Shown here one piece after another: positions 1 to 60,602 of a stretch of DNA of 64,000 nucleotides. How positions within the stretch are numbered: the first letter of the stretch is position 1; each line of letters begins with the position of its first letter. The position numbers and the translations under genes were made by a program. The notes under the pieces are model-generated. The model was not told where the DNA came from, did no database searches, and worked only from the letters and a program-made list of their open reading frames with translations. This stretch comes from Escherichia coli (GTDB taxonomy: Bacteria > Pseudomonadota > Gammaproteobacteria > Enterobacterales > Enterobacteriaceae). The stretch is from the NCBI RefSeq assembly GCF_044647545.1, contig NZ_CP172818.1. One strand, 5' to 3'.

Positions 1-428
1 TCGACCGTTATGTTACCTACGCGGATTTCTGGATTCAGGATCAGGAGTATCGTGATCCGGATACCGGGCAGTTGTTTGACCGCGAGTCTCTTAACGCCGA
101 GCTGGAGAAAATCGAGAAACCGGCGGGGATCAGTAATCCAAAAGATTTCCGCAACGAGATTGTTAACTTCGTACTGCGCGCCAGAGCGAATAACAGCGGA
201 CGCAATCCGAACTGGACCAGCTATGAAAAACTGCGCACGGTTATTGAGAAGAAAATGTTCTCCAATACCGAGGAGCTGTTGCCGGTTATTTCGTTTAACG
301 CCAAAACGTCAACCGACGAGCAGAAGAAACATGACGACTTTGTCGACCGTATGATGGAAAAAGGCTACACCCGTAAACAGGTGCGTTTACTGTGCGAATG
401 GTATTTGCGCGTACGTAAATCGTCTTAA
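1..428 (+). CDS. yeaG: PrkA-family serine protein kinase YeaG, C-terminal fragment (5' end outside window)
   Basis: Frame is open from the window edge and ends ...EWYLRVRKSS at stop 426-428; ORF track 72..428 is its internal-Met tail; yeaH follows as in K-12. Confidence 0.85.
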   Translation, partial: DRYVTYADFWIQDQEYRDPDTGQLFDRESLNAELEKIEKPAGISNPKDFRNEIVNFVLRARANNSGRNPNWTSYEKLRTVIEKKMFSNTEELLPVISFNAKTSTDEQKKHDDFVDRMMEKGYTRKQVRLLCEWYLRVRKSS

Positions 429-528
429 CAACCCTGGCCCGGTACACTTGCTACCGGGCCTACAACGACAGCGAACCGTGGGCCAGAGAAGCGGCAACAC
501 AGGCGTAGCATACCGTTGGCAAATGTAG

Positions 529-1824
<1,296 letters not shown>

Positions 1825-1970
1825 AACTGTCAGCCGGGTCATTATCGCCTGGCTGATTTTTAGCTCACTGTAAATTATCTCATTTATTACATACATTAGC
1901 TTACAATCGCTTTAAATATGACAGCATAACCTTTACACAATTTAGTTCCAGAAAACAATCATTCGGAAAA

Positions 1971-3446
1971 ATGATTCGGTCAACACGTATTTCCCTGGGG
2001 TTATTCTTTAATTATTTTTTATCGTCAACGAAAATTGATCCTGGTCAAAACTATATATCTCTGCCATCAATAAAATCCAGCACTCACATTGCTCTCCTTT
2101 TTATGGCTTCTATGGGTACACAAAAATTAAAAGCTCAAGGCTTTTTTATTTTCAGCTTATTGCTGACGTTAATTTTATTTTGCATTACTACCTTATATAA
2201 CGAAAACACAAATGTAAAACTCATCCCACAGATGAATTACCTGATGGTTGTTGTGGCTTTGTTTTTCCTTAACGCCGTCATTTTTCTTTTCATGTTAATG
2301 AAGTATTTCACTAACAAACAAATTTTACCAACACTCATTTTAAGTCTTGCATTTTTAAGTGGCCTTATCTATTTAGTTGAAACCATTGTAATTATCCATA
2401 AACCAATCAACGGCAGTACACTGATCCAGACAAAGTCGAATGATGTTTCTATTTTCTATATTTTCCGCCAACTCAGTTTCATTTGTTTAACCTCGCTGGC
2501 GCTCTTTTGTTATGGGAAAGACAACATCCTTGACAACAATAAGAAAAAAACTGGCATTCTGTTGCTGGCGCTGATTCCTTTTTTAGTTTTTCCCCTTCTG
2601 GCACACAATCTGAGTAGTTATAACGCTGACTATTCTTTGTATGTCGTCGATTACTGTCCGGACAACCATACTGCGACCTGGGGAATCAACTATACAAAAA
2701 TATTGGTTTGTTTGTGGGCATTTTTACTGTTCTTTATTATCATGCGTACACGATTAGCCAGCGAACTATGGCCGTTAATAGCATTATTATGTCTGGCATC
2801 GCTATGCTGCAACTTACTTCTACTGACTCTGGATGAGTATAATTACACCGTCTGGTATATCAGTCGCGGGATTGAAGTTTCCAGTAAACTGTTTGTTGTG
2901 TCTTTTCTGATTTATAACATTTTTCAGGAACTGCAACTCTCCAGCAAACTGGCAGTTCATGATGTACTGACCAATATTTATAATCGGCGCTACTTTTTCA
3001 ACAGCGTAGAGTCATTATTGTCGCGACCTGTTGTTAAGGACTTTTGTGTCATGCTGGTTGATATTAATCAGTTCAAACGCATCAATGCCCAATGGGGACA
3101 TCGTGTGGGTGATAAAGTGCTGGTATCAATTGTCGATATTATCCAGCAAAGCATCCGCCCCGATGATATTTTAGCGCGACTGGAGGGTGAGGTGTTTGGC
3201 TTGCTATTTACCGAACTCAATAGTGCCCAGGCAAAAATCATTGCGGAACGTATGCGTAAAAATGTCGAACTCCTGACCGGCTTTAGTAACAGATATGATG
3301 TTCCTGAACAAATGACCATCAGTATTGGCACGGTTTTTTCAACGGGTGACACGCATAATATCTCGCTTGTCATGACGGAAGCAGATAAAGCCTTACGCGA
3401 AGCGAAAAGCGAGGGGGGCAACAAAGTGATTATTCATCATATTTAA
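1971..3446 (+). CDS. dgcI: Membrane GGDEF-domain protein with degenerate active site (EGEVF)
   Basis: 491-aa ORF with multi-TM N-terminus and C-terminal GGDEF fold; motif reads RLEGEVFGL instead of GGDEF; gene is strongly AT-rich. Confidence 0.85.
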   Translation: MIRSTRISLGLFFNYFLSSTKIDPGQNYISLPSIKSSTHIALLFMASMGTQKLKAQGFFIFSLLLTLILFCITTLYNENTNVKLIPQMNYLMVVVALFFLNAVIFLFMLMKYFTNKQILPTLILSLAFLSGLIYLVETIVIIHKPINGSTLIQTKSNDVSIFYIFRQLSFICLTSLALFCYGKDNILDNNKKKTGILLLALIPFLVFPLLAHNLSSYNADYSLYVVDYCPDNHTATWGINYTKILVCLWAFLLFFIIMRTRLASELWPLIALLCLASLCCNLLLLTLDEYNYTVWYISRGIEVSSKLFVVSFLIYNIFQELQLSSKLAVHDVLTNIYNRRYFFNSVESLLSRPVVKDFCVMLVDINQFKRINAQWGHRVGDKVLVSIVDIIQQSIRPDDILARLEGEVFGLLFTELNSAQAKIIAERMRKNVELLTGFSNRYDVPEQMTISIGTVFSTGDTHNISLVMTEADKALREAKSEGGNKVIIHHI

Positions 3447-3626
3447 GTGCAAAAATATTCAGAGCCATGCTTTTTGCGTGGCTTTTGCATACAATTTATT
3501 ACTATTACCCCTAAATTTCCCCTCCCCAGCGGCGCAGAGATGAGTATAATTAGCGCCCCTGTGCCAGGCCGCAATCGAACTTTATCTGGTTTTCTCGTTT
3601 CACTAACCGAAGGAGTGCCATTTATC

Positions 3627-5117
3627 ATGAAATTGCACCATAGAATGCTCCGGCATTTTATCGCCGCAAGTGTCATTGTGCTGACATCTTCCTTCCTTAT
3701 TTTTGAACTTGTCGCCAGTGACAGAGCAATGAGTGCCTATCTGCGCTATATCGTGCAGAGAGCAGACTCCTCCTTTCTTTATGATAAGTATCAGAATCAG
3801 AGTATTGCCGCGCATGTGATGCGCGCGCTCGCTGCTGAGCAGTCGGAAGTGTCGCCAGAACAGCGGCGCGCCATCTGCGAGGCTTTTGAGTCTGCCAATA
3901 ATACCCATGGCTTAAACCTGACTGCCCATAAATACCCTGGCTTACGCGGCACACTACAAACCGCATCCACTGACTGCGACACAATTGTGGAAGCTGCTGC
4001 ACTATTACCCGCTTTTGATCAGGCAGTGGAAGGCAACCGCCACCAGGATGATTACGGTTCAGGTCTTGGGATGGCCGAAGAGAAATTTCACTATTATCTC
4101 GATCTCAATGACCGCTATGTCTATTTTTATGAGCCGGTTAATGTTGAGTACTTTGCGATGAATAACTGGTCCTTCCTGCAGTCAGGAAGTATTGGCATCG
4201 ATCGCAAAGATATTGAAAAGGTATTTACCGGGCGTACCGTATTATCGAGCATTTACCAGGATCAGCGTACTAAACAGAACGTGATGAGTTTGCTGACGCC
4301 GGTATATGTCGCAGGGCAGCTAAAAGGGATTGTGCTGCTGGATATTAACAAAAACAATCTGCGGAATATCTTTTACACTCATGACCGCCCTCTCCTCTGG
4401 CGTTTTCTCAATGTCACGCTAACTGATACAGATTCGGGGCGCGACATTATCATCAACCAGAGCGAAGATAATCTGTTCCAGTATGTCAGTTACGTCCATG
4501 ACTTACCGGGCGGCATTCGTGTCTCGTTATCCATTGATATTCTTTACTTTATCACGTCTTCGTGGAAAAGCGTTCTGTTCTGGATTTTGACGGCGTTAAT
4601 TTTGCTGAATATGGTGCGGATGCACTTCCGTTTATACCAAAATGTGTCGCGAGAAAATATTAGTGATGCGATGACTGGACTCTATAATCGCAAAATTTTA
4701 ACCCCTGAACTGGAGCAGCGGTTGCAGAAGCTGGTGCAATCCGGTTCTTCGGTGATGTTTATTGCAATTGACATGGACAAGTTAAAGCAAATAAATGACA
4801 CCCTTGGTCATCAGGAGGGGGATTTAGCGATTACGTTATTAGCGCAGGCGATTAAACAGTCGATTCGTAAAAGTGATTATGCCATCCGACTCGGTGGCGA
4901 TGAATTCTGCATCATTCTTGTCGATTCGACACCGCAAATTGCAGCACAACTGCCTGAACGTATCGAAAAACGTCTGCAACATATCGCGCCGCAGAAAGAG
5001 ATCGGCTTCTCTTCCGGTATTTACGCGATGAAAGAAAACGATACGTTACATGATGCGTATAAAGCTTCCGATGAGCGTTTATATGTCAATAAGCAGAACA
5101 AAAACAGCCGTTCATGA
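3627..5117 (+). CDS. dgcJ: Membrane diguanylate cyclase (intact GGDEF)
   Basis: ATG at 3627 preceded by AGGAG gives 496 aa; motif RLGGDEFCI present; ORF track start 3447 is an upstream in-frame extension. Confidence 0.85.
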   Translation: MKLHHRMLRHFIAASVIVLTSSFLIFELVASDRAMSAYLRYIVQRADSSFLYDKYQNQSIAAHVMRALAAEQSEVSPEQRRAICEAFESANNTHGLNLTAHKYPGLRGTLQTASTDCDTIVEAAALLPAFDQAVEGNRHQDDYGSGLGMAEEKFHYYLDLNDRYVYFYEPVNVEYFAMNNWSFLQSGSIGIDRKDIEKVFTGRTVLSSIYQDQRTKQNVMSLLTPVYVAGQLKGIVLLDINKNNLRNIFYTHDRPLLWRFLNVTLTDTDSGRDIIINQSEDNLFQYVSYVHDLPGGIRVSLSIDILYFITSSWKSVLFWILTALILLNMVRMHFRLYQNVSRENISDAMTGLYNRKILTPELEQRLQKLVQSGSSVMFIAIDMDKLKQINDTLGHQEGDLAITLLAQAIKQSIRKSDYAIRLGGDEFCIILVDSTPQIAAQLPERIEKRLQHIAPQKEIGFSSGIYAMKENDTLHDAYKASDERLYVNKQNKNSRS

Positions 5118-5159
5118 TAACCTTCTGTAGTTGTTTGCTTGTAATCTCAGGAGCATGAA

Positions 5160-5663
5160 ATGACTGAAATGGCTAAAGGAAGCGTGACGCATCAGCGGTT
5201 AATCGCTTTATTATCGCAAGAAGGTGCTAACTTCCGCGTCGTTACCCATGAAGCGGTAGGTAAATGTGAAGCGGTGTCAGAAATTCGTGGCACCGCTTTA
5301 GGCCAGGGGGCTAAGGCACTGGTATGTAAAGTCAAAGGCAATGGCGTAAATCAACATGTTCTGGCGATCCTCGCGGCCGATCAACAGGCCGATCTGAGCC
5401 AACTTGCCAGCCATATAGGCGGATTACGCGCTTCGTTGGCCAGCCCGGCGGAAGTCGATGAACTCACAGGCTGTGTCTTCGGCGCGATCCCCCCTTTCAG
5501 CTTCCATCCAAAACTCAAACTGGTTGCCGACCCCCTACTCTTCGAACGATTTGATGAAATCGCCTTCAATGCAGGCATGCTGGATAAATCCGTTATTTTG
5601 AAAACCGCGGATTATTTGCGCATTGCGCAACCAGAACTGGTCAATTTCCGCCGCACTGCGTAA
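5160..5663 (+). CDS. yeaK: YbaK/ProX-family aminoacyl-tRNA deacylase YeaK
   Basis: 167-aa ORF with GGAG upstream; conserved position after dgcJ. Confidence 0.85.
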   Translation: MTEMAKGSVTHQRLIALLSQEGANFRVVTHEAVGKCEAVSEIRGTALGQGAKALVCKVKGNGVNQHVLAILAADQQADLSQLASHIGGLRASLASPAEVDELTGCVFGAIPPFSFHPKLKLVADPLLFERFDEIAFNAGMLDKSVILKTADYLRIAQPELVNFRRTA

Positions 5664-5768
5664 CTAGCCTGTCCGTTCGATAAGAAGAACGGACAAAACC
5701 AGCACAACAGCAATGGCAAAAAACGATGACGTGATAATCAGTGTCTCGACGAACATTTGATCGTTCAT
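5664..5768 (-). CDS. yoaI: Small membrane protein YoaI (34 aa)
   Basis: Minus-strand ORF read by hand: [34 protein letters not shown]; below the ORF-track size cut-off. Confidence 0.6.
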
Positions 5769-5937
5769 AGTATGCCCCCGGGAGATAGCTGTTTTCACGT
5801 TATTGTTAACGTGCACAAATGGCAGTTTGATGACAGTTCGCCTGATTTTTTATGCAAAAAACGTAAAGATTTTCTACTTCCTTCCTGCAGCAAGCGTAAA
5901 GTAAGCAGGCTTATTATTCTTTGGCAAGGAAACCACG

Positions 5938-6384
5938 ATGTTTGATGTCACTTTGCTGATCCTGCTCGGGTTAGCTGCGCTGGGCTTTATCAGTCATAAC
6001 ACCACTGTCGCCGTTTCAATTCTGGTGTTAATCATTGTCCGCGTCACACCGTTAAGCACCTTTTTCCCGTGGATTGAAAAACAGGGGCTAAGTATCGGGA
6101 TAATCATTCTGACGATTGGTGTTATGGCTCCCATCGCCAGCGGGACGCTACCGCCCTCAACCCTGATTCACTCGTTTCTGAACTGGAAATCGCTGGTGGC
6201 AATTGCAGTCGGCGTTATTGTCTCCTGGCTGGGAGGGCGCGGCGTGACGTTAATGGGCAGCCAGCCGCAACTGGTCGCCGGGTTGCTGGTGGGCACTGTT
6301 TTAGGCGTGGCGCTGTTTCGCGGCGTACCGGTTGGCCCGCTTATTGCCGCGGGTCTGGTTTCGCTGATTGTGGGGAAACAGTAG
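5938..6384 (+). CDS. yeaL: UPF0756 inner-membrane protein YeaL
   Basis: 148-aa hydrophobic ORF; 3' end overlaps the convergent nimR. Confidence 0.85.
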
Positions 6385-7162
6385 TTAATCCCGCAATATA
6401 TCGGCCTGGCGTTTGCCCCAGGCCTTTCTTAAACATAGTAATAAAGGCCGTTGTTGAATCATACCCCAGCGTATGAGCAACTTTCTGTACAGTATCGCCT
6501 TTCACTAATCCCTGAAGCGCCATAATCAGCTGTAACTGCTGACGCCACTGGCGAAAACTCAACCCCGTCTCTTTCACTATCAGCCGGGCAAGATTGCGTT
6601 CACTCATCGCAAAAAAGCGAGCCCATTGCCCCAATGACCCCCACTCGACGGGCTCTTTCGCCATCATCTCCACCATCGCGCGGATTTTAGGATGAGAAGA
6701 AACGGGTAGGTGCAGCTGTTGTTGTGGCTGCTGAGGGAGTTCATCAAACAGGACCTGAATTAATCTGCGGGTCATCGGCTCAGCACGCTGAGTCGTCGTC
6801 CTGTTTGCCAGGGTTAAAATTAATTCCCGGCATAAGGGCGATATTTTCAATGTGCAACAGGTTGTCGGCATTGTCACTGCGCTGGGTTCGATAAACAGAA
6901 AACAGAGTTCGGCGTTAGCTGTCACTTGATTGCTATGTTCCACCCCTCCCGGTATCCAAACCGCATATTGCGGCGGCACCATCCACAAAGCATTTTCCAC
7001 CGTACAGGTAATTGCACCATGTAGCGCCAGTATCAGCTGTCCTTTGCGGTGCTGATGTACAGGACTGGTTAACTCATCCGTTCCGGCGTGAATACAAAAT
7101 GCGACCGCGGCTTCATGGTGTCGGTCGGGTTCATAGCCATTGAGATTCAACCTGTGCATCAT
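6341..7162 (-). CDS. nimR: AraC-family transcriptional regulator NimR (YeaM)
   Basis: 273-aa ORF with cupin-like N-terminus and AraC-type HTH C-terminus; divergent from the MFS gene nimT. Confidence 0.85.
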
Positions 7163-7258
7163 TTTGTCCGAATTTAGCGATAATTTGTCATTTTAGCTTG
7201 ATTCAACATAACACTAAAAACGGTAAGGTACAGCCTCGTTTGTAACAATGAGAAGCAT

Positions 7259-8440
7259 ATGACCTGTTCAACTTCATTAAGCGGCAAAAACAGGATTGTC
7301 CTTATCGCTGGTATTCTGATGATTGCCACAACATTACGCGTCACCTTTACCGGCGCAGCACCGTTACTGGATACGATTCGTTCCGCTTACTCGCTGACGA
7401 CGGCGCAAACCGGCTTATTGACCACCCTGCCATTATTAGCCTTTGCGCTAATCTCACCGCTGGCCGCCCCGGTGGCGCGACGTTTTGGTATGGAACGTAG
7501 CCTGTTTGCCGCGTTACTTTTGATCTGTGCAGGTATCGCAATTCGCTCTCTCCCTTCGCCTTACTTATTATTTGGCGGTACAGCGGTCATTGGCGGTGGG
7601 ATTGCATTAGGCAATGTCTTACTGCCAGGATTAATTAAACGCGATTTCCCTCATTCCGTCGCCAGACTTACCGGCGCATATTCCCTGACAATGGGAGCTG
7701 CGGCGGCACTGGGATCGGCTATGGTAGTGCCGCTGGCTTTGAACGGTTTTGGCTGGCGAGGCGCGTTGCTCATGCTGATGTGTTTTCCTCTGCTGGCTCT
7801 TTTTTTATGGCTGCCACAGTGGCGAAGCCAACAACATGCAAATTTGAGTACTTCACGCGCCTTACATACTCGGGGTATCTGGCGTTCGCCGCTTGCCTGG
7901 CAGGTAACATTGTTTCTTGGGATCAACTCACTGGTCTATTACGTGATTATTGGCTGGCTTCCGGCGATCCTCATCAGTCACGGCTATAGCGAAGCACAGG
8001 CGGGTTCACTGCATGGTTTGCTGCAACTAGCCACAGCAGCTCCCGGTTTGCTGATCCCACTTTTCTTACACCATGTGAAAGATCAGCGTGGTATTGCAGC
8101 GTTCGTTGCCTTGATGTGCGCAGTGGGCGCGGTTGGGCTCTGCTTTATGCCAGCGCACGCGATCACCTGGACTCTGCTTTTCGGCTTTGGTTCCGGCGCA
8201 ACAATGATACTGGGGTTGACGTTCATTGGTCTGCGGGCAAGTTCTGCGCATCAGGCGGCGGCACTCTCGGGGATGGCACAATCCGTCGGGTATTTGCTGG
8301 CAGCCTGTGGGCCGCCGCTGATGGGTAAAATACACGATGCTAACGGTGACTGGTCCGTACCACTGATGGGTGTTGCAATACTTTCACTACTGATGGCGAT
8401 TTTCGGACTTTGCGCCGGGAGAGACAAAGAAATTCGCTAA
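7259..8440 (+). CDS. nimT: MFS transporter NimT (YeaN)
   Basis: 393-aa, roughly 12-TM hydrophobic ORF; divergent from nimR. Confidence 0.85.
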   Translation: MTCSTSLSGKNRIVLIAGILMIATTLRVTFTGAAPLLDTIRSAYSLTTAQTGLLTTLPLLAFALISPLAAPVARRFGMERSLFAALLLICAGIAIRSLPSPYLLFGGTAVIGGGIALGNVLLPGLIKRDFPHSVARLTGAYSLTMGAAAALGSAMVVPLALNGFGWRGALLMLMCFPLLALFLWLPQWRSQQHANLSTSRALHTRGIWRSPLAWQVTLFLGINSLVYYVIIGWLPAILISHGYSEAQAGSLHGLLQLATAAPGLLIPLFLHHVKDQRGIAAFVALMCAVGAVGLCFMPAHAITWTLLFGFGSGATMILGLTFIGLRASSAHQAAALSGMAQSVGYLLAACGPPLMGKIHDANGDWSVPLMGVAILSLLMAIFGLCAGRDKEIR

Positions 8441-8494
8441 TATCCGGTGCTATAGTGACGTGACAAATCATGCGTGAAAGGGAGAACAAACACG

Positions 8495-8842
8495 ATGAAT
8501 ATTCAGTGCAAACGCGTTTATGATCCGGCTGAACAGAGCGATGGTTATCGCGTACTGGTCGACCGCCTCTGGCCGCGCGGTATCAAAAAAACCGATTTAG
8601 CCCTTGATGAGTGGGATAAAGAAATCACGCCGTCAACGGAACTGCGCAAAGCCTTTCACGGCGAAGTCGTCGATTTTGCAACCTTTCGCGAGCAATATCT
8701 TGCAGAACTGGCGCAACACGAGCAAGAAGGAAAGCGGCTGGCGAACATCGCCAAAAAACAGCCGCTGACCCTGCTCTACTCAGCAAAAAACACCACGCAG
8801 AACCATGCGCTGGTGCTGGCAGACTGGCTACGTAGCTTGTGA
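8495..8842 (+). CDS. yeaO: DUF488 protein YeaO
   Basis: ATG at 8495 after GGGAGA SD gives 115 aa; ORF track start 8474 is an upstream extension. Confidence 0.8.
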   Translation: MNIQCKRVYDPAEQSDGYRVLVDRLWPRGIKKTDLALDEWDKEITPSTELRKAFHGEVVDFATFREQYLAELAQHEQEGKRLANIAKKQPLTLLYSAKNTTQNHALVLADWLRSL

Positions 8843-8863
8843 TTTTAGTACGCCATCCGGCGG

Positions 8864-9118
8864 TTATTTTTCACCAGCCGGATGGTCCCGTCGCCACAAT
8901 GCCCATTCATCAATCGTTTCACCGCCCGGTAATTTGCAATTGTTGCTGACCCCTTGCGCTGTCTGCACTGGAATGAGCGTCCCGCCCTTCTGCTGGCAAT
9001 AGACCGACGCCGGATTTGCCATACCAATCTGTGGCGGTTTAGGTGCTTCTGGCTGAGAAGGGGTTGAACAACCAGCCAGGACCAGCAAGCAAGGCAGAAC
9101 AAAACTGATAATTTTCAT
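8864..9118 (-). CDS. yoaF: DUF333 lipoprotein YoaF
   Basis: 84-aa ORF with lipoprotein signal (LVLAGCSTP lipobox). Confidence 0.8.
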   Translation of the reverse strand: MKIISFVLPCLLVLAGCSTPSQPEAPKPPQIGMANPASVYCQQKGGTLIPVQTAQGVSNNCKLPGGETIDEWALWRRDHPAGEK

Positions 9119-9300
9119 TTATTGATCTCACATATTTATCCAGACTTAGAGTATCGCGGTATCGTTTTGTTTTGCAGCACTATTTTTATTACATTCACTC
9201 AAAACATATTACGCCTTGTTTCATCTTTGTTGATGATGTTTTATCATGCCTGCAAAGATTAAATAATCAGCATTTACCCGCCGTATCCTGGAGTTGTTTC

Positions 9301-10326
9301 GTGTCAGATCAGATTATCGCCCGCGTCTCGCAATCCCTTGCCAAAGAACAGTCACTGGAAAGTCTGGTTCGACAGCTTCTGGAGATGCTGGAAATGGTCA
9401 CTGATATGGAATCAACCTACCTGACCAAAGTGGATGTCGAAGCGCGCCTGCAGCATATAATGTTTGCCCGTAACAGCCAGAAAATGCACATCCCGGAGAA
9501 TTTTACCGTCTCGTGGGATTACTCGTTATGCAAACGCGCCATTGATGAAAACTGCTTTTTCAGCGATGAAGTCCCCGACCGTTGGGGCGACTGTATTGCG
9601 GCACGCAATCTTGGCATCACCACATTTCTGAGCACGCCAATTCACTTACCGGATGGATCATTCTATGGCACGCTTTGCGCCGCCAGCAGTGAGAAGCGCC
9701 AGTGGAGTGAACGCGCGGAACAGGTTTTGCAGTTATTCGCCGGACTGATTGCACAATATATTCAAAAAGAGGCGCTGGTAGAACAGCTGCGCGAAGCCAA
9801 TGCCGCACTGATAGCGCAATCGTATACCGACTCGTTAACCGGGCTACCGAATCGGCGGGCGATTTTTGAAAATCTGACGACGCTGTTTTCTCTCGCCCGG
9901 CATCTTAACCATAAGATAATGATCGCGTTTATCGACCTGGATAACTTCAAATTAATCAACGATCGTTTTGGTCATAATAGTGGCGATCTGTTTCTCATTC
10001 AGGTTGGCGAGCGCCTTAATACGCTCCAGCAAAATGGCGAAGTTATTGGTCGTCTCGGCGGTGATGAGTTTTTGGTTGTTTCACTGAACAACGAGAATAC
10101 GGATATTTCGTCGCTGCGAGAACGTATTCAACAGCAAATACGTGGAGAATATCACTTAGGTGATGTTGATTTGTATTATCCCGGTGCCAGTCTTGGCATA
10201 GTAGAAGTCGATCCTGAAACGACCGATGCAGACAGTGCCCTGCATGCTGCCGATATCGCGATGTATCAGGAGAAAAAACACAAACAGAAAACACCTTTTG
10301 TCGCGCATCCAGCGCTACATTCCTGA
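9301..10326 (+). CDS. dgcP: GAF-GGDEF diguanylate cyclase
   Basis: GTG at 9301 after GGAG gives 341 aa; intact GRLGGDEFLVV motif. Confidence 0.85.
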   Translation: MSDQIIARVSQSLAKEQSLESLVRQLLEMLEMVTDMESTYLTKVDVEARLQHIMFARNSQKMHIPENFTVSWDYSLCKRAIDENCFFSDEVPDRWGDCIAARNLGITTFLSTPIHLPDGSFYGTLCAASSEKRQWSERAEQVLQLFAGLIAQYIQKEALVEQLREANAALIAQSYTDSLTGLPNRRAIFENLTTLFSLARHLNHKIMIAFIDLDNFKLINDRFGHNSGDLFLIQVGERLNTLQQNGEVIGRLGGDEFLVVSLNNENTDISSLRERIQQQIRGEYHLGDVDLYYPGASLGIVEVDPETTDADSALHAADIAMYQEKKHKQKTPFVAHPALHS

Positions 10327-10358
10327 GGCGTATTCACATCCTTTTGATTGGTGATAAC

Positions 10359-10457
10359 ATGCGAATCGGTATTATTTTTCCGGTTGTAATCTTTATTACA
10401 GCGGTCGTATTTTTAGCATGGTTTTTTATTGGCGGCTATGCTGCCCCGGGAGCATAA
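10359..10457 (+). CDS. yoaK: Small membrane protein YoaK (32 aa)
   Basis: Hand-translated: MRIGIIFPVVIFITAVVFLAWFFIGGYAAPGA; below ORF-track cut-off. Confidence 0.55.
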   Translation: MRIGIIFPVVIFITAVVFLAWFFIGGYAAPGA

Positions 10458-10459
10458 AG

Positions 10460-10534
10460 ATGAAAAAAACAACGATTATTATGATGGGTGTGGCGATTAT
10501 TGTCGTACTCGGCACTGAGCTGGGATGGTGGTAA
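10460..10534 (+). CDS. yoaJ: Small membrane protein YoaJ (24 aa)
   Basis: Hand-translated: MKKTTIIMMGVAIIVVLGTELGWW; starts 2 nt after the yoaK stop. Confidence 0.55.
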   Translation: MKKTTIIMMGVAIIVVLGTELGWW

Positions 10535-10592
10535 CGTCACATCTAGAAAATAGCAAAGGCTGCCTGTGTGCAGCCTTTGTGCAATTTACGCG

Positions 10593-10841
10593 TTAACTTT
10601 TAATCTTTCTGTAGATAAACAGCACGACAATCGCGCCAATAACGGCAACCACGAAGCTGCCAAAATTGAAGCCATCGACTTTACCAAAGCCAAACAGCGT
10701 GCTGATCCATCCGCCGACTACGGCACCGACTATCCCCAGCAGGATAGTCATAAAGAATCCACCACCATCTTTACCTGGCATGATCCACTTCGCCAGAATA
10801 CCGGCAATAAGCCCAAAAATAATCCATGACAGAATGCCCAT
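10593..10841 (-). CDS. yeaQ: GlsB/YeaQ/YmgE-family small membrane protein
   Basis: 82-aa Gly-rich hydrophobic ORF. Confidence 0.85.
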   Translation of the reverse strand: MGILSWIIFGLIAGILAKWIMPGKDGGGFFMTILLGIVGAVVGGWISTLFGFGKVDGFNFGSFVVAVIGAIVVLFIYRKIKS

Positions 10842-10988
10842 TGTTTCCTCACTTATCTGTTTTGCATTAGCGGGTTAGTCGCTGATAAAAAGCATAGCAC
10901 AACATCGGGAGGGCAAGATTTGTGACGAGCATCACGGAGGAATTTTTTGCGATGGCGCAGAAATTGCGCCATCAACGATCAGTGATAA

Positions 10989-11171
10989 TTACCAACCACA
11001 AACATCATGTTCGTTTTCCGTGTCATAAGAACGCACGGTATTCACCAGATCTTTTATCACTTCAGCCGCCACTTCTGGTACCAGCAAAGTCATCGGCGTC
11101 TCTGTTTCATAATCGACAGAAACGCCATTGCTGTTATTGGTGACGGTCACGGTATACGTTGCTTTGCCCAT
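10989..11171 (-). CDS. yoaG: DUF1869 protein YoaG
   Basis: 60-aa ORF immediately downstream of yeaR on the same strand. Confidence 0.8.
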   Translation of the reverse strand: MGKATYTVTVTNNSNGVSVDYETETPMTLLVPEVAAEVIKDLVNTVRSYDTENEHDVCGW

Positions 11172-11174
11172 GAT

Positions 11175-11534
11175 TCATTTCCCGTTATGAATGACTTTCC
11201 GTTGTTGCGCGCCTTCCATCAGGACTTCAGGAGCAACGAAGAAGTCAATGTTGAAATAAGTGTCGTCAGTCATGGCTTCAATGTTGTGCCACTTTTCTGG
11301 AGGGAACACCGCAAACTGCCCCGCTTCGATAAGGATCACTTGATCAGGCTCTGCACTGTGTTCATCAGCGTAGCCGAGATATTTGACCGCCCCATGCATA
11401 ACGGAAAGGCGTGGGTAAACCCCCGGGCGCGTTCCTTTATCAAGATGACGTTCGAATATTCCGGCAGGCGCAGTTTGTTTATTCCAGAAAGGCGTTGAGC
11501 GCGTATGAATATAATTCTGTGGGATTTGCAGCAT
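11175..11534 (-). CDS. yeaR: DUF1971 protein YeaR
   Basis: 119-aa ORF; first gene of the yeaR-yoaG pair. Confidence 0.8.
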   Translation of the reverse strand: MLQIPQNYIHTRSTPFWNKQTAPAGIFERHLDKGTRPGVYPRLSVMHGAVKYLGYADEHSAEPDQVILIEAGQFAVFPPEKWHNIEAMTDDTYFNIDFFVAPEVLMEGAQQRKVIHNGK

Positions 11535-11706
11535 CCTTTTCCCTCCTTCGGTGAATGCGCTGAAAACGGTTTATTCCAGCCGTTTCAGGGTACGCCTGAT
11601 AATTTGCATTTTAAATACCATTTATTGGTTACTTTTTAGCACCGTATCAGAGAAGAATCAGGGAGGATTACAGATGGGAAGCCCGCGACAACGCGGGCTG
11701 AAAGCA

Positions 11707-12414
<708 letters not shown>

Positions 12415-12471
12415 TTAGAAAGGAGAAAATCAGGTTTTAACCCGATATCAACGCGATAATTGAATCATTAA

Positions 12472-13395
12472 TCAGGCATGCTCCAGTGAAAAATTCGGGT
12501 AGTGCTCGGCAAAATACTGGCGTAAAAATTCTACCGTTATCCGCACTTTCGCTGACGTCGCCAGCCTTGAAACATAAACGGCCCAGACGTTCGCTGGCTG
12601 GTAATATTCCGGTAGCACTTGCACTAAATGACCACTGGCAATGTTTTCGCTAACATCCCACCAGGAGCGCAGAGCAATCCCCTGCCCATCGAGACACCAC
12701 TGATGGACAATTTCTCCATGATTAGACGACAGTGGGCCGGTAACTTTAATCGCATGGTGGCCTTCTTTATTGCGTAATTGCCAGACACCAAAAGGATGAT
12801 CGCGCTCTTTAATGACCAGGCACGGCAATGCAGAAAGATCGGTTAAATGTTTCGGCGCGCCATGTTGCGCAATAAATTCCGGTGACGCGCAGAGAATGCG
12901 ATAATTGGTCGCCAGTTTGCGGGCGATTAAATTAGGGGCGATATCATCGCCAATGCGAATATCGAGATCGACACCTTCATTGACCAAATCGACCAACCGG
13001 TCTTCCACATCAAAACGTAATTCCAGTTGCGGATACGCCTTCGCCAGCGCTGATAACGCCGGAGCCACCACCTGTCGTCCAAAACCAAAGCTGCTGATAA
13101 TACGCAGCATCCCCTGTGGCACCTGACGCACGTCAGAAAGTTCGTCCATCATCTGACCGACATCCTGCAAAATCCGCTGCGCCCATTCATAAATCCGCTC
13201 TCCTTCTTCGGTAATGGTGACGCGGCGGGTGGTGCGGTGTAACAACACCACGTTTAGCGTTTGCTCCAGCAAGGCGATGCGCTTGCTGACGAACGCCGGA
13301 GAAACGCCCAATTCTTCTGCCACGGCGGCAAAACCAGCCCGGCGAGCCACCAGCATAAAGACGCGCAAATCGTTCAGCAGCGGTAAATTATTCAT
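12472..13395 (-). CDS. dmlR: LysR-family transcriptional regulator DmlR
   Basis: 307 aa from internal Met (MNNLPLLNDLRVF...); N-terminal HTH; divergent from dmlA. Confidence 0.85.
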   Translation of the reverse strand: MNNLPLLNDLRVFMLVARRAGFAAVAEELGVSPAFVSKRIALLEQTLNVVLLHRTTRRVTITEEGERIYEWAQRILQDVGQMMDELSDVRQVPQGMLRIISSFGFGRQVVAPALSALAKAYPQLELRFDVEDRLVDLVNEGVDLDIRIGDDIAPNLIARKLATNYRILCASPEFIAQHGAPKHLTDLSALPCLVIKERDHPFGVWQLRNKEGHHAIKVTGPLSSNHGEIVHQWCLDGQGIALRSWWDVSENIASGHLVQVLPEYYQPANVWAVYVSRLATSAKVRITVEFLRQYFAEHYPNFSLEHA

Positions 13396-13497
13396 GATTC
13401 GTGTTTTATGTTTCACCAGTTACAGGGATTAATTCCTTTTCAGTCAATTATAGGATGGTGATGTTGTCAATTTTGATGGTCAGGAAGTGAGAACCCA

Positions 13498-14583
13498 ATG
13501 ATGAAAACGATCCGTATTGCTGCGATCCCGGGAGACGGGATTGGCAAAGAAGTCCTTCCTGAAGGGATTCGCGTGTTAAAGGCTGCCGCTGAGCGCTGGG
13601 GCTTCGCCTTGAGTTTTGAGCAAATGGAGTGGGCGAGCTGCGAGTATTACAGCCATCACGGTAAAATGATGCCGGACGACTGGCATGAGCAACTTAGCCG
13701 TTTCGACGCCATCTATTTTGGTGCCGTCGGCTGGCCGGATACCGTTCCGGACCATATTTCGTTGTGGGGTTCGCTGCTGAAATTTCGTCGTGAGTTCGAC
13801 CAGTACGTCAACCTGCGCCCGGTTCGTCTCTTTCCTGGCGTTCCCTGCCCGCTGGCGGGAAAACAGCCTGGCGACATCGATTTTTACGTGGTCAGGGAAA
13901 ACACCGAAGGCGAATATTCCTCGCTCGGCGGTAGAGTGAATGAAGGTACAGAGCATGAAGTCGTCATTCAGGAATCGGTATTTACGCGTCGTGGTGTCGA
14001 TCGCATTTTGCGTTATGCCTTTGAACTTGCACAAAGCCGCCCACGTAAGACGCTAACTTCTGCCACTAAATCGAACGGTTTAGCCATCAGCATGCCGTAC
14101 TGGGATGAGCGAGTGGAAGCAATGGCCGAGAATTACCCGGAGATCTGCTGGGACAAGCAGCATATTGATATTCTCTGCGCGCGTTTTGTGATGCAGCCGG
14201 AACGCTTCGATGTGGTGGTGGCGTCCAATTTGTTTGGCGATATCCTTTCCGATCTTGGCCCGGCCTGCACCGGTACCATTGGCATTGCCCCATCCGCCAA
14301 CCTGAATCCGGAACGCACTTTCCCGTCGCTCTTCGAGCCTGTCCACGGTTCCGCGCCGGATATCTACGGGAAAAATATTGCTAACCCTATCGCCACAATT
14401 TGGGCCGGTGCAATGATGCTCGATTTTCTCGGCAATGGCGATGAGCGTTTCCAACAAGCGCATAACGGTATTCTGGCCGCGATTGAAGAAGTGATTACTC
14501 ACGGGCCGAAAACACCTGATATGAAAGGCAATGCCACCACGCCACAGGTTGCCGACGCGATTTGCAAAATTATTTTGCGTTAA
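13498..14583 (+). CDS. dmlA: D-malate/3-isopropylmalate-type decarboxylating dehydrogenase
   Basis: 361-aa ORF with isocitrate/isopropylmalate dehydrogenase-family hallmarks. Confidence 0.9.
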   Translation: MMKTIRIAAIPGDGIGKEVLPEGIRVLKAAAERWGFALSFEQMEWASCEYYSHHGKMMPDDWHEQLSRFDAIYFGAVGWPDTVPDHISLWGSLLKFRREFDQYVNLRPVRLFPGVPCPLAGKQPGDIDFYVVRENTEGEYSSLGGRVNEGTEHEVVIQESVFTRRGVDRILRYAFELAQSRPRKTLTSATKSNGLAISMPYWDERVEAMAENYPEICWDKQHIDILCARFVMQPERFDVVVASNLFGDILSDLGPACTGTIGIAPSANLNPERTFPSLFEPVHGSAPDIYGKNIANPIATIWAGAMMLDFLGNGDERFQQAHNGILAAIEEVITHGPKTPDMKGNATTPQVADAICKIILR

Positions 14584-14601
14584 GGTCAAACCAGTTTATT
14601 T

Positions 14602-14630
14602 GAACCGCGTCACTGACGCGGTTTTTTTAT
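14602..14630 (+). terminator. Rho-independent terminator after dmlA
   Basis: Hairpin ACCGCGTCACTGACGCGGT followed by a T7 run. Confidence 0.6.
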
Positions 14631-14826
14631 TCGTTCTTTTCAGTAAATAACCTGCGTCATTTCACCTTTTATTGTTTCCGTTTCGTGTTTTATGGCTTTC
14701 CGTATTCTTAATTGTTTAATTTATGTAACATGCAAATAATCAATTTGTTAAACACAACATACAACTCATTACCCTGCAAATAATTACAACTGGCAAAAGC
14801 CAGAGACGGGTTTTTATGCCCAGGAG

Positions 14827-16386
14827 ATGACTCATATAGCAATGTTAAAAAAAAAGATGGCTAAAAATTTTTTTTTTAACTTTTCCCCAAAAAAACCCAA
14901 AAATTTTGTTACGCGTACGTTAGGTTCCGCCGTACAGGTATTGGTTTTGCTGGCAATGGGACTGGTGATTTATTTAGCCACCAGTAAATACGGCAATATT
15001 CGTCTTGGCGAAGGAAAACCGGAATACAGCACGCTCTCCTGGCTGTTTATGTTTATTTGTGCCGGTTTAGGTTCTTCTACGCTTTATTGGGGGGTTGCTG
15101 AATGGGCCTATTATTATCAAACCCCTGGATTAAATATCGCACCGCGTTCACAACAGGCACTCGAATTTAGCGTCCCTTACTCCTTCTTCCACTGGGGCAT
15201 CAGCGCCTGGGCAACTTATACGCTGGCCTCATTAATCATGGCTTATCACTTTCATGTGCGGAAAAATAAGGGGCTGAGCCTTTCCGGCATTATTGCTGCT
15301 ATTACCGGCGTTCGCCCGCAAGGCCCATGGGGAAAACTGGTCGATTTGATGTTCCTGATCGCCACTGTCGGCGCACTGACCATTTCCCTTGTTGTCACCG
15401 CAGCAACCTTTACCCGTGGGCTTTCCGCGCTGACCGGTTTACCCGATAATTTCACCGTGCAGGCATTTGTGATCCTGCTTTCCGGCGGCATTTTTTGCCT
15501 AAGCTCGTGGATTGGTATCAACAACGGTTTGCAACGTCTGAGCAAAATGGTTGGCTGGGGCGCGTTCCTGCTGCCATTACTGGTGCTCATTGTCGGCCCA
15601 ACCGAATTTATTACCAACAGCATCATCAATGCCATCGGCCTGACCACGCAAAACTTCCTGCAAATGAGCTTATTCACCGATCCGCTTGGCGATGGTTCAT
15701 TTACCCGCAACTGGACCGTTTTCTACTGGCTGTGGTGGATCTCATACACCCCTGGCGTAGCAATGTTTGTCACCCGCGTTTCCCGCGGTCGTAAGATTAA
15801 AGAAGTTATCTGGGGACTGATCCTCGGCAGCACCGTCGGTTGCTGGTTCTTCTTCGGCGTAATGGAAAGCTATGCCATTCACCAGTTTATCAATGGCGTA
15901 ATCAACGTCCCACAGGTGCTGGAAACACTGGGCGGCGAGACAGCTGTGCAGCAAGTTCTGATGTCGTTGCCAGCCGGTAAATTGTTCCTCGCCGCATACC
16001 TGGGCGTGATGATTATTTTCCTTGCCTCGCATATGGATGCAGTGGCCTACACCATGGCGGCAACCAGTACGCGTAATCTCCAGGAAGGTGACGATCCTGA
16101 CCGTGGGCTGCGTCTTTTCTGGTGCGTGGTAATTACCTTGATCCCGCTTTCAATTCTTTTCACTGGCGCGTCGCTGGAAACGATGAAAACCACCGTCGTA
16201 CTCACAGCCCTTCCGTTCCTCGTCATTTTACTGGTGAAAGTCGGCGGATTTATTCGCTGGCTGAAACAGGATTACGCCGACATTCCGGCTCATCAAGTTG
16301 AACATTATCTCCCGCAGACACCGGTTGAAGCCCTGGAAAAAACACCAGTGCTCCCTGCGGGAACCGTATTCAAAGGCGACAACTGA
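14827..16386 (+). CDS. yeaV: BCCT-family transporter YeaV (start uncertain; TTG at 14941 would give the 481 aa remembered for K-12)
   Basis: Long multi-TM ORF; first 38 codons cover homopolymer tracts and look like leader rather than coding sequence. Confidence 0.8.
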
Positions 16387-30048: not shown

Positions 30049-30161
30049 TACTTTATCCTCGCCCATCTGCAACCCCGCTTTCTCGTCTGCTGTAATATTC
30101 CCCACTACACTTCCACTGTTGCGTCAGGCGTTTGTCGCCATACGCTTACAGGGTGGCCCGC

Positions 30162-47993: not shown

Positions 47994-49277
47994 ATGGCTC
48001 TTAACACACCACAAATTACGCCGACAAAAAAGATAACAGTGAGGGCTATCGGTGAGGAACTGCCGCATGGTGATTACCAACGTTGCCCGCAATGTGACAT
48101 GCTGTTTAGCCTGCCCGAGATAAATTCTCATCAAAGTGCCTATTGTCCGCGCTGTCAGGCAAAAATTCGTGACGGGCGCGACTGGTCGCTAACGCGCCTG
48201 GCGGCAATGGCGTTCGCTATGCTGTTGTTGATGCCGTTTGCCTGGGGCGAACCGCTGTTGCATATCTGGCTGTTAGGCATTCGTATTGACGCCAACGTTA
48301 TGCAAGGCATCTGGCAAATGACCAAACAGGGCGATGCGATAACGGGGTCGATGGTCTTTTTTTGCGTTATTGGTGCCCCCCTCATTCTGGTGACCTCCAT
48401 AGCTTATTTATGGTTTGGTAACCGACTGGGAATGAATTTACGTCCGGTACTACTGATGCTTGAACGACTTAAAGAGTGGGTAATGCTGGATATCTACCTG
48501 GTCGGCATTGGCGTTGCTTCTATAAAGGTACAGGATTATGCCCATATCCAGGCGGGTGTCGGCTTGTTCTCTTTTGTGGCGTTGGTGATTTTAACGACGG
48601 TGACGTTGTCACATCTTAATGTCGAAGAACTGTGGGAGCGATTTTATCCGCAGCGCCCCGCTACGCGAAGGGACGAGAAACTCCGTGTCTGTCTTGGGTG
48701 TCATTTTACCGGCTATCCTGATCAGCGTGGTCGCTGCCCGCGTTGCCATATCCCGCTACGCCTGCGTCGCCGTCATAGTCTGCAAAAATGCTGGGCGGCG
48801 CTGTTAGCGTCAATCGTTTTGTTGTTACCTGCCAACCTGTTGCCTATCTCTATCATTTATCTGAATGGTGGTCGGCAGGAAGATACGATTCTTTCCGGAA
48901 TTATGTCGCTGGCAAGTAGCAACATTGCGGTTGCGGGAATCGTGTTTATCGCCAGTATTCTGGTACCGTTTACTAAAGTGATCGTCATGTTCACTTTACT
49001 GTTGAGTATTCATTTTAAATGCCAGCAAGGTTTACGCACACGCATTCTGTTACTGCGGATGGTGACCTGGATTGGTCGCTGGTCGATGCTCGACCTGTTT
49101 GTCATATCTTTAACCATGTCGCTGATTAATCGCGATCAGATCCTCGCTTTTACTATGGGACCGGCTGCGTTTTATTTCGGCGCAGCGGTAATTTTGACTA
49201 TTCTTGCTGTGGAATGGCTGGACAGCCGCTTACTTTGGGATGCACATGAGTCAGGAAACGCCCGCTTCGACGACTGA
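47994..49277 (+). CDS. letA: PqiA-family inner-membrane protein LetA (YebS)
   Basis: 427-aa ORF with two zinc-ribbon-like CxxC pairs and TM segments. Confidence 0.85.
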
Positions 49278-57074: not shown

Positions 57075-57175
57075 AACTTATACATAGTTACACTTTCTTA
57101 CATAACGCCTGCTAAATTATGAGTATTTTCTAAACCGCACCCATAATTTGCAGTCATTTTGAAAAGGAAGTCATT

Positions 57176-57832
57176 ATGTCGTTCTGGAAAGTTGCAGCAG
57201 CGCAATATGAGCCTCGTAAAACCTCACTCACCGAACAGGTAGCTCATCATCTGGAGTTTGTGAGGGCCGCCGCCAGGCAACAATGTCAGCTGTTAGTTTT
57301 TCCATCGCTTTCTTTACTGGGGTGTGATTATTCGCGACGTGCCCTTCCTGCCCCACCCGATCTCTCGCTATTAGACCCGCTGTGTTAAGCTGCAACGACC
57401 TGGCGAATGACTATCATTGCCGGTCTTCCCGTTGAATATAACGATCGCTTTATTCGTGGAATTGCGGTGTTCGCACCGTGGCGAAAAACGCCAGGGATCT
57501 ACCATCAGAGTCATGGTGCATGTCTGGGCCGTCGTTCCAGAACCATCACGGTGGTCGATGAACAACCGGAAGGTATGGATATGGACCCGACCTGTTCACT
57601 GTTTACGACAGGGCAATGTCTGGGAGAACCCGACCTGCTGGCTTCGGCCCGTCGCTTACAATTTTTTTCACATCAGTACTCGATTGCTGTGCTGATGGCA
57701 AATGCCCGTGGTAACAGTGCACTATGGGATGAACATGGTCGTCTCATCGTTCGCGCCGATCGTGGTTCATTATTGTTAGTCGGTCAGCGTTCATCACAGG
57801 GTTGGCAAGGCGATATCATTCCATTACGCTAG
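57176..57832 (+). pseudogene. yobB: C-N hydrolase-family gene yobB interrupted by an in-frame TAA at 57386-57388
   Basis: ORFs 57176..57388 and 57407..57832 share one frame; the span is exactly 219 codons, matching the 218-aa length remembered for K-12 YobB; a single stop (..LLDPLC*AATTWRMTIIAG..) breaks it. Confidence 0.55.
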
Positions 57833-57855
57833 GCTTTTTCGGCCTGGAGCATGCC

Positions 57856-60602
<2,747 letters not shown>

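Follow-up and report, generated by a model that had tools for sequence, protein, structure and literature searches.

A rare nonsense allele of yobB in Escherichia coli, and the missing catalytic residues of the predicted nitrilase-fold protein that it interrupts

The question raised by this locus is whether the in-frame stop codon that interrupts yobB is a real mutation of an otherwise intact gene and, if it is, what kind of protein has been lost. In the window (the whole stretch of E. coli DNA that was analysed, 64,000 nucleotides) the yobB frame opens with an ATG at 57176, with AAGGAAG just upstream, and closes after 219 codons with TAG at 57830-57832. Its sole interruption is a TAA at 57386-57388 (codon 71), separated by six sense codons (AATTWR) from an in-frame ATG at 57407. 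The initial annotation had described a single TAA splitting the gene into open reading frames of 70 and 141 codons next to exoX, and the stop and both frames are present at the positions given there, with exoX adjoining. The features of the interrupted gene are as follows.

57176..57832, + strand: yobB pseudogene, 219 codons, broken at codon 71; corresponds to AC2R0D_RS10700 of strain EC11.
57176..57388, + strand: N-terminal fragment of yobB, 70 codons plus TAA (from the list of open reading frames).
57382..57382, + strand: linked synonymous change in yobB, T>G, Leu69 CTT>CTG, 6 nt upstream of the stop change.
57386..57388, + strand: ochre stop TAA in place of TAT (Tyr71); the causal change is T>A at 57388.
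57407..57832, + strand: downstream open reading frame of yobB, 141 codons from Met78 (from the same list).

The 70-codon fragment is expected to be the sole product from the native start and the 141-codon downstream frame, which on its own gave no NCBIfam match, is probably untranslated or poorly translated. A chance pattern was considered for the stop and rejected, as one specific base sets this copy apart from thousands of intact homologues.

Comparison with K-12 establishes which state is the derived one. K-12 yobB (b1843), annotated as a putative carbon-nitrogen hydrolase family protein, shares with the window its locus, promoter, length of 657 nt and the gene order holE-yobB-exoX. The earlier supposition that the 219-codon span equals the length of K-12 YobB was correct (b1843 encodes 218 aa and is collinear without gaps), and when the alignment that had been proposed as a check was run, codon 71 of the reference proved to be the sense codon TAT (Tyr71) within a protein covering both fragments, so that the suspected nonsense allele or pseudogene is borne out and the alternative that K-12 carries the same TAA falls away. 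The two genes are 98% identical at the nucleotide level, the 13 differences consisting of 10 synonymous changes, two missense changes (E132Q and H187Y) and the one nonsense change (TAT>TAA at codon 71). When 57100-57900 was compared by megablast with 5,426 complete E. coli genomes it matched 5,425 of them, always at yobB/exoX. The nearest intact relative is FDAARGOS_497, from which the window differs over 5.8 kb by two bases, 57382 T>G and 57388 T>A. As TAT is found at codon 71 in both FDAARGOS_497 and K-12, the window carries a derived nonsense allele, an in-frame stop within a collinear full-length homologue, which we refer to as Y71*.

Just two further differences separate the window from FDAARGOS_497 over the whole 64 kb, a 17-bp intergenic indel and an odd segment of yeaV. 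The indel lies between sdaA and pdeD (window position 30072), where the 17 bp CGGATGGGCGAATTTAT of FDAARGOS_497 are missing from both the window and EC11. The yeaV segment lies at the 5' end of that gene (14811-14903, + strand), where about 100 bp of normal coding sequence are replaced by a 44-bp stretch, GCTAAAAATTTTTTTTTTAACTTTTCCCCAAAAAAACCCAAAAA, that is almost free of G and rich in homopolymers, with two substitutions and two 1-bp deletions nearby. The gene stays in frame (a 519-aa open reading frame). Neither EC11 nor FDAARGOS_497 nor any of the 5,426 complete genomes contains the 44-bp stretch, which has the look of a garbled consensus or of an edit and is unrelated to yobB. EC11 differs from the window here in having a normal yeaV 5' end in its RefSeq record, with which the window is therefore not literally identical.

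Outside this segment, EC11 (NZ_CM169490.1; isolated from human gut, Spain) is 100% identical to the window over 14904-64000 and exact over 59-14810. Its yobB (AC2R0D_RS10700) is identical to that of the window including both substitutions and is annotated by PGAP/RefSeq as pseudo with an 'internal stop', the sole pseudogene among 73 EC11 features in the corresponding 64 kb. The allele is therefore already recorded in public annotation and is an ordinary event.

To determine how often it occurs, a 44-mer carrying both changes was used as a probe, with every 28-nt seed forced to cover both derived bases. It was found in one of the 5,426 complete E. coli genomes, namely EC11. No complete genome among the same 5,426 contained 30-mers with the derived A alone (in two backgrounds) or with the derived G alone (on a background with T at 57391), and the control 30-mer with the ancestral pair of T residues was present in 763. 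The G of Leu69 at 57382 accompanies the stop in every Y71* carrier examined. Outside the complete genomes, the exact 70-aa and 141-aa products are both present in a collection of 15 billion proteins, and the G...TAA pair was seen, among the matches listed, in the Logan assemblies SRR11650015 and SRR22582532, whose contigs match the window without a single difference over 6.2 kb and 8.4 kb, respectively, and so may come from the same clone or even from the same isolate's reads. Two contigs assembled from human-gut metagenomes carry it as well, ERZ917530/SRR341694 with 23 SNPs over 6.2 kb and ERZ28626288 with 16 SNPs over 3.2 kb, although such contigs may be chimeric and their distinct backgrounds are unproven. 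The variant thus recurs in further data, with the independence of the identical assemblies likewise unproven. None of the carriers shows further decay of the gene, the sole extra difference being one synonymous change in the ERZ917530/SRR341694 contig. An exact look-up of the 70-aa product returned 111 contigs, a misleading figure as many are TAT-type contigs (e.g. L011-L015) that end inside codon 71, and for this reason no carrier frequency is given.

These occurrences bear directly on the two artificial origins that the initial annotation had left open and that can now be set aside. The first is a sequencing or assembly error, the true codon being TAT and both clustered substitutions artefacts. 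Two private substitutions 6 nt apart within otherwise identical sequence would fit such an error, and the garbled homopolymer-rich stretch at 14811-14903, common to no complete genome, indicates that the source assembly is not error-free. However, the identical G...TAA pair is present in the RefSeq record of EC11, which is without the garbled stretch, and in two Logan and two metagenome assemblies, the latter with different flanking SNPs; moreover, yobB is the only disrupted gene of the 64 kb. The presence of the pair in other assemblies and in a record with normal yeaV argues against an artefact: the other carriers rule out a one-off consensus error, and consensus error of any kind is highly improbable. 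The second is an engineered knock-out, for example by oligo recombineering that added a stop and a nearby silent mismatch, since a stop and a silent change 6 nt apart do resemble the design of a recombineering oligo. Against it, EC11, the matching strain, is a human gut isolate, the same haplotype has been assembled from human-gut metagenomes, and the yobB locus contains no scars, cassettes or further edits. A laboratory edit is very unlikely and we assign it next to no weight.

The explanation that we prefer, with a probability of about 0.9, is that Y71* is a spontaneous, naturally segregating loss-of-function allele of yobB. In this scheme an ancestor in an ST648-like E. coli lineage would have gained both T>A at 57388 and T>G at 57382. 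Translation beginning at the native ATG would then stop after 70 residues, giving a fragment that would end before the third quarter of the N-terminal half of the alpha-beta-beta-alpha fold and would be unable to form the domain, and the remaining 444 nt of yobB would be left essentially untranslated. Loss of YobB function through Y71* is what we infer from this, and yobB is dispensable enough for null alleles to arise repeatedly, each staying rare. As neither of the changes at 57382 and 57388 is ever seen without the other, their simplest origin would be a single multi-nucleotide mutation. A search of both strands of the window for a templating donor or quasi-palindrome, using 9- to 12-mers over both derived bases, gave only a chance 9-mer at 48000 (- strand).

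A different possibility is that the gene still functions in two pieces, with re-initiation at the ATG at 57407 giving a 141-aa protein that keeps the function of YobB, alone or together with the 70-aa peptide. This ATG is in frame and only 18 nt past the stop, close enough for a terminating ribosome to reach it, and the best-conserved YobB motifs (SALWDE...LIVRAD...GWQGDIIPLR) do lie in the C-terminal part. On the other hand, pairing with the anti-Shine-Dalgarno sequence is very weak at this ATG (-1.9 kcal/mol, compared with -5.7 kcal/mol at the native yobB start), and judging from the structural model the fragment would lack the strands and helices of residues 1-77, the N-terminal third of a single-domain sandwich fold. 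A functional restart product from Met78 is unlikely because of this weak signal and the absence of residues 1-77. Furthermore, only 1 of 5,426 genomes has this arrangement, which is thus not conserved, and other yobB null alleles break the gene differently. We allow a functional split gene only a small chance. An even more remote alternative is programmed read-through or recoding of the TAA to give full-length YobB. Low-level read-through of ochre codons is general, but nothing specific speaks for it here. The context is TAA-G, UAA is not recoded in E. coli, and the stop is conserved in no relative, so that the combination of conserved stop and recoding signal expected of programmed recoding is not found; TAA is neither the selenocysteine nor the pyrrolysine codon. 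The probability of read-through is practically negligible.

Y71* is not the only lesion of its kind, which is of interest for the preferred reading of a natural null allele. A second nonsense allele, L66* (TTA>TGA), is present in contig L016 (3770-4426) and in the complete genome of MS 21-1 (1 of 5,426), and a +1 T frameshift at codon 62 is found in the NCTC assembly GCA_900448625.1 (contig L017, 3769-4426). Like Y71*, both truncate the protein early and leave the same 141-aa downstream frame, and each is rare; they differ from Y71* in the lesion and in the haplotype that carries it, and are therefore independent events. Several further frameshifted or shortened YobB products occur in E. coli and Shigella. 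In one E. coli protein (P0058, 218 aa) a deletion fuses residues 1-108 of YobB in frame to the C-terminal part of ExoX, and this fusion is named 'exodeoxyribonuclease X' by one source. Among intact alleles dN/dS is about 0.06-0.1, indicating purifying selection; yobB is thus normally maintained and its loss may carry some cost. The gene is under constraint yet conditionally dispensable, and its null alleles are rare and recent.

As yobB lies immediately ahead of exoX, effects of the stop on the downstream gene were also considered. Two further features are needed here.

57079..57106, + strand: sigma-70 promoter reported for the yobB-exoX operon, TATACA-16-CATAAC; hexamers and spacer are found verbatim in the window.
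57856..58518, + strand: exoX, intact, the downstream gene of the same reported operon, beginning 23 nt past the yobB stop.

The promoter is listed as a constitutive sigma-70 promoter of the operon (PMC3946193), and a generic consensus promoter scan did not pick it up. yobB has in addition been placed in the CpxR iModulon (PMC7657598). No terminator-like site was seen between yobB and exoX, and a generic scan for an internal promoter or terminator between the TAA and exoX gave nothing convincing. With the stop in place, 467 nt ahead of exoX go untranslated, so that a degree of Rho-dependent polarity is conceivable. Past the stop there is no strong excess of C over G, the C/G ratio of 78-nt windows being mostly 1 or less, with a modest stretch of C>G at 57597-57675. 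Mild polarity of Y71* on exoX is possible.

What kind of protein has been lost was addressed with the repaired (stop-free) YobB protein. It matches the Pfam CN_hydrolase family (PF00795) in two segments, covering model positions 1-112 and 149-249 (E-values of 2.2e-19 and 2e-06). An AlphaFold model (pLDDT 68.9, pTM 0.73, weak at residues 129-178) was compared with the PDB by Foldseek, and the top matches (6le2, 5h8j, 5g3o, 2w1v and 6ypa; E-values down to 6e-10, TM-scores up to 0.70) all belong to the nitrilase superfamily, being D-carbamoylase, N-carbamoylputrescine amidohydrolase, AmiF, Nit2 and the PH0642 amidase. Both the superfamily profile and, in the predicted structure, the alpha-beta-beta-alpha fold are therefore present, and sequence and predicted fold are common to YobB and the superfamily of amidases, carbamoylases, Nit1/2 and the glutaminase domain of NAD+ synthetase. 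No YobB-specific NCBIfam model was matched, the only hit being a sub-threshold one to the NAD+ synthase N-terminus.

It is in the active site that YobB departs from this superfamily. The initial annotation had pointed to LVFPSLSLLG, with Ser in place of the catalytic Glu, and this motif is present as described:

57305..57307, + strand: TCG codon of Ser44, where nitrilase-superfamily enzymes have the catalytic Glu of their FPE motif; aligned with the Glu of FPELS and with the invariant E44 of canonical relatives.

The FPSLS of YobB aligns with FPELS of PDB entries 5kha, 8uxu and 3ilv, so that Ser44 stands where these have Glu and the catalytic Glu of the FPE motif is missing from the YobB of the window. 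Among 27 YobB orthologues the first Glu is kept in those of Enterobacter, Kluyvera, Leclercia and Scandinavium and is replaced by Ser (once by Ala) in Escherichia, Citrobacter and Salmonella. Against PDB entries HMMER covers no more than residues 1-100 of YobB; to place the Lys and Cys, distant relatives of full length (about 250 aa), retrieved with the family profile, were used together with hhalign. In these canonical relatives E44, K111, E118 and C143 are invariant, within the motifs FPELSLTGYE, Y-x-K-x-x-LH-x-x-E and LAICAD. The profile-profile alignment of YobB with them had an hhalign probability of 100% and an E-value of 8.6e-46. In both the MAFFT and the hhalign alignments K111 and E118 fall in a 12-residue segment that is missing from YobB, which consequently has neither the catalytic Lys of Y-x-K-x-x-L-H nor the second Glu, and C143 lies opposite a Val flanked by gaps, the AICAD block with its nucleophilic Cys being gone. 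None of the Lys residues is invariant across the 27 orthologues, and the one Cys that is invariant in the clade, C37, lies upstream of the FPE motif. YobB thus differs from the superfamily in being without the Glu-Lys-Glu-Cys tetrad and in being shorter by about 30-40 residues because of the deletions at the Lys and Cys segments. The suggestion that intact YobB might itself be catalytically degenerate was, if anything, understated, as the entire clade is also without the Lys, second Glu and Cys.

By these alignments YobB has the predicted fold but none of the catalytic residues, and hydrolase activity should not be assumed. The name 'carbon-nitrogen hydrolase' is probably misleading for this protein, because the catalytic tetrad has been lost from the clade. 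In the literature searched, no paper connects yobB with nitrilase chemistry or describes the Y71* allele. That the active site is degenerate across the YobB clade, and that yobB is constantly paired with exoX, may be regarded as modestly new. This pairing extends well beyond Escherichia: in Enterobacter and at the locus of an orthologue only 36% identical, holE, yobB and exoX (+ strand) follow copC/copD/yebY (- strand) and precede ptrB (- strand), and in both the spacer between yobB and exoX is kept at about 24 nt. It is the conserved order and spacer that prompt a speculative link between YobB and ExoX, namely that intact YobB could be no amidase but a catalytically dead nitrilase-fold pseudoenzyme, held under purifying selection, that may partner or regulate exonuclease X or the replisome without being catalytic itself. 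This proposal is tentative, and we would put it at rather less than an even chance, in the range of the possible but doubtful.

Taken by itself Y71* matters little, being one rare, recent loss in a non-essential gene of unknown function that a standard pipeline had already flagged. The repeated natural knock-outs, each of them rare, together with the constraint on intact alleles point to a real but conditionally dispensable role for YobB. Prediction of that role should look to binding or regulation, with exoX as the obvious candidate partner. If the pseudoenzyme reading is true, null alleles such as Y71* would be ready material with which to probe both the link to ExoX and polarity within the operon.
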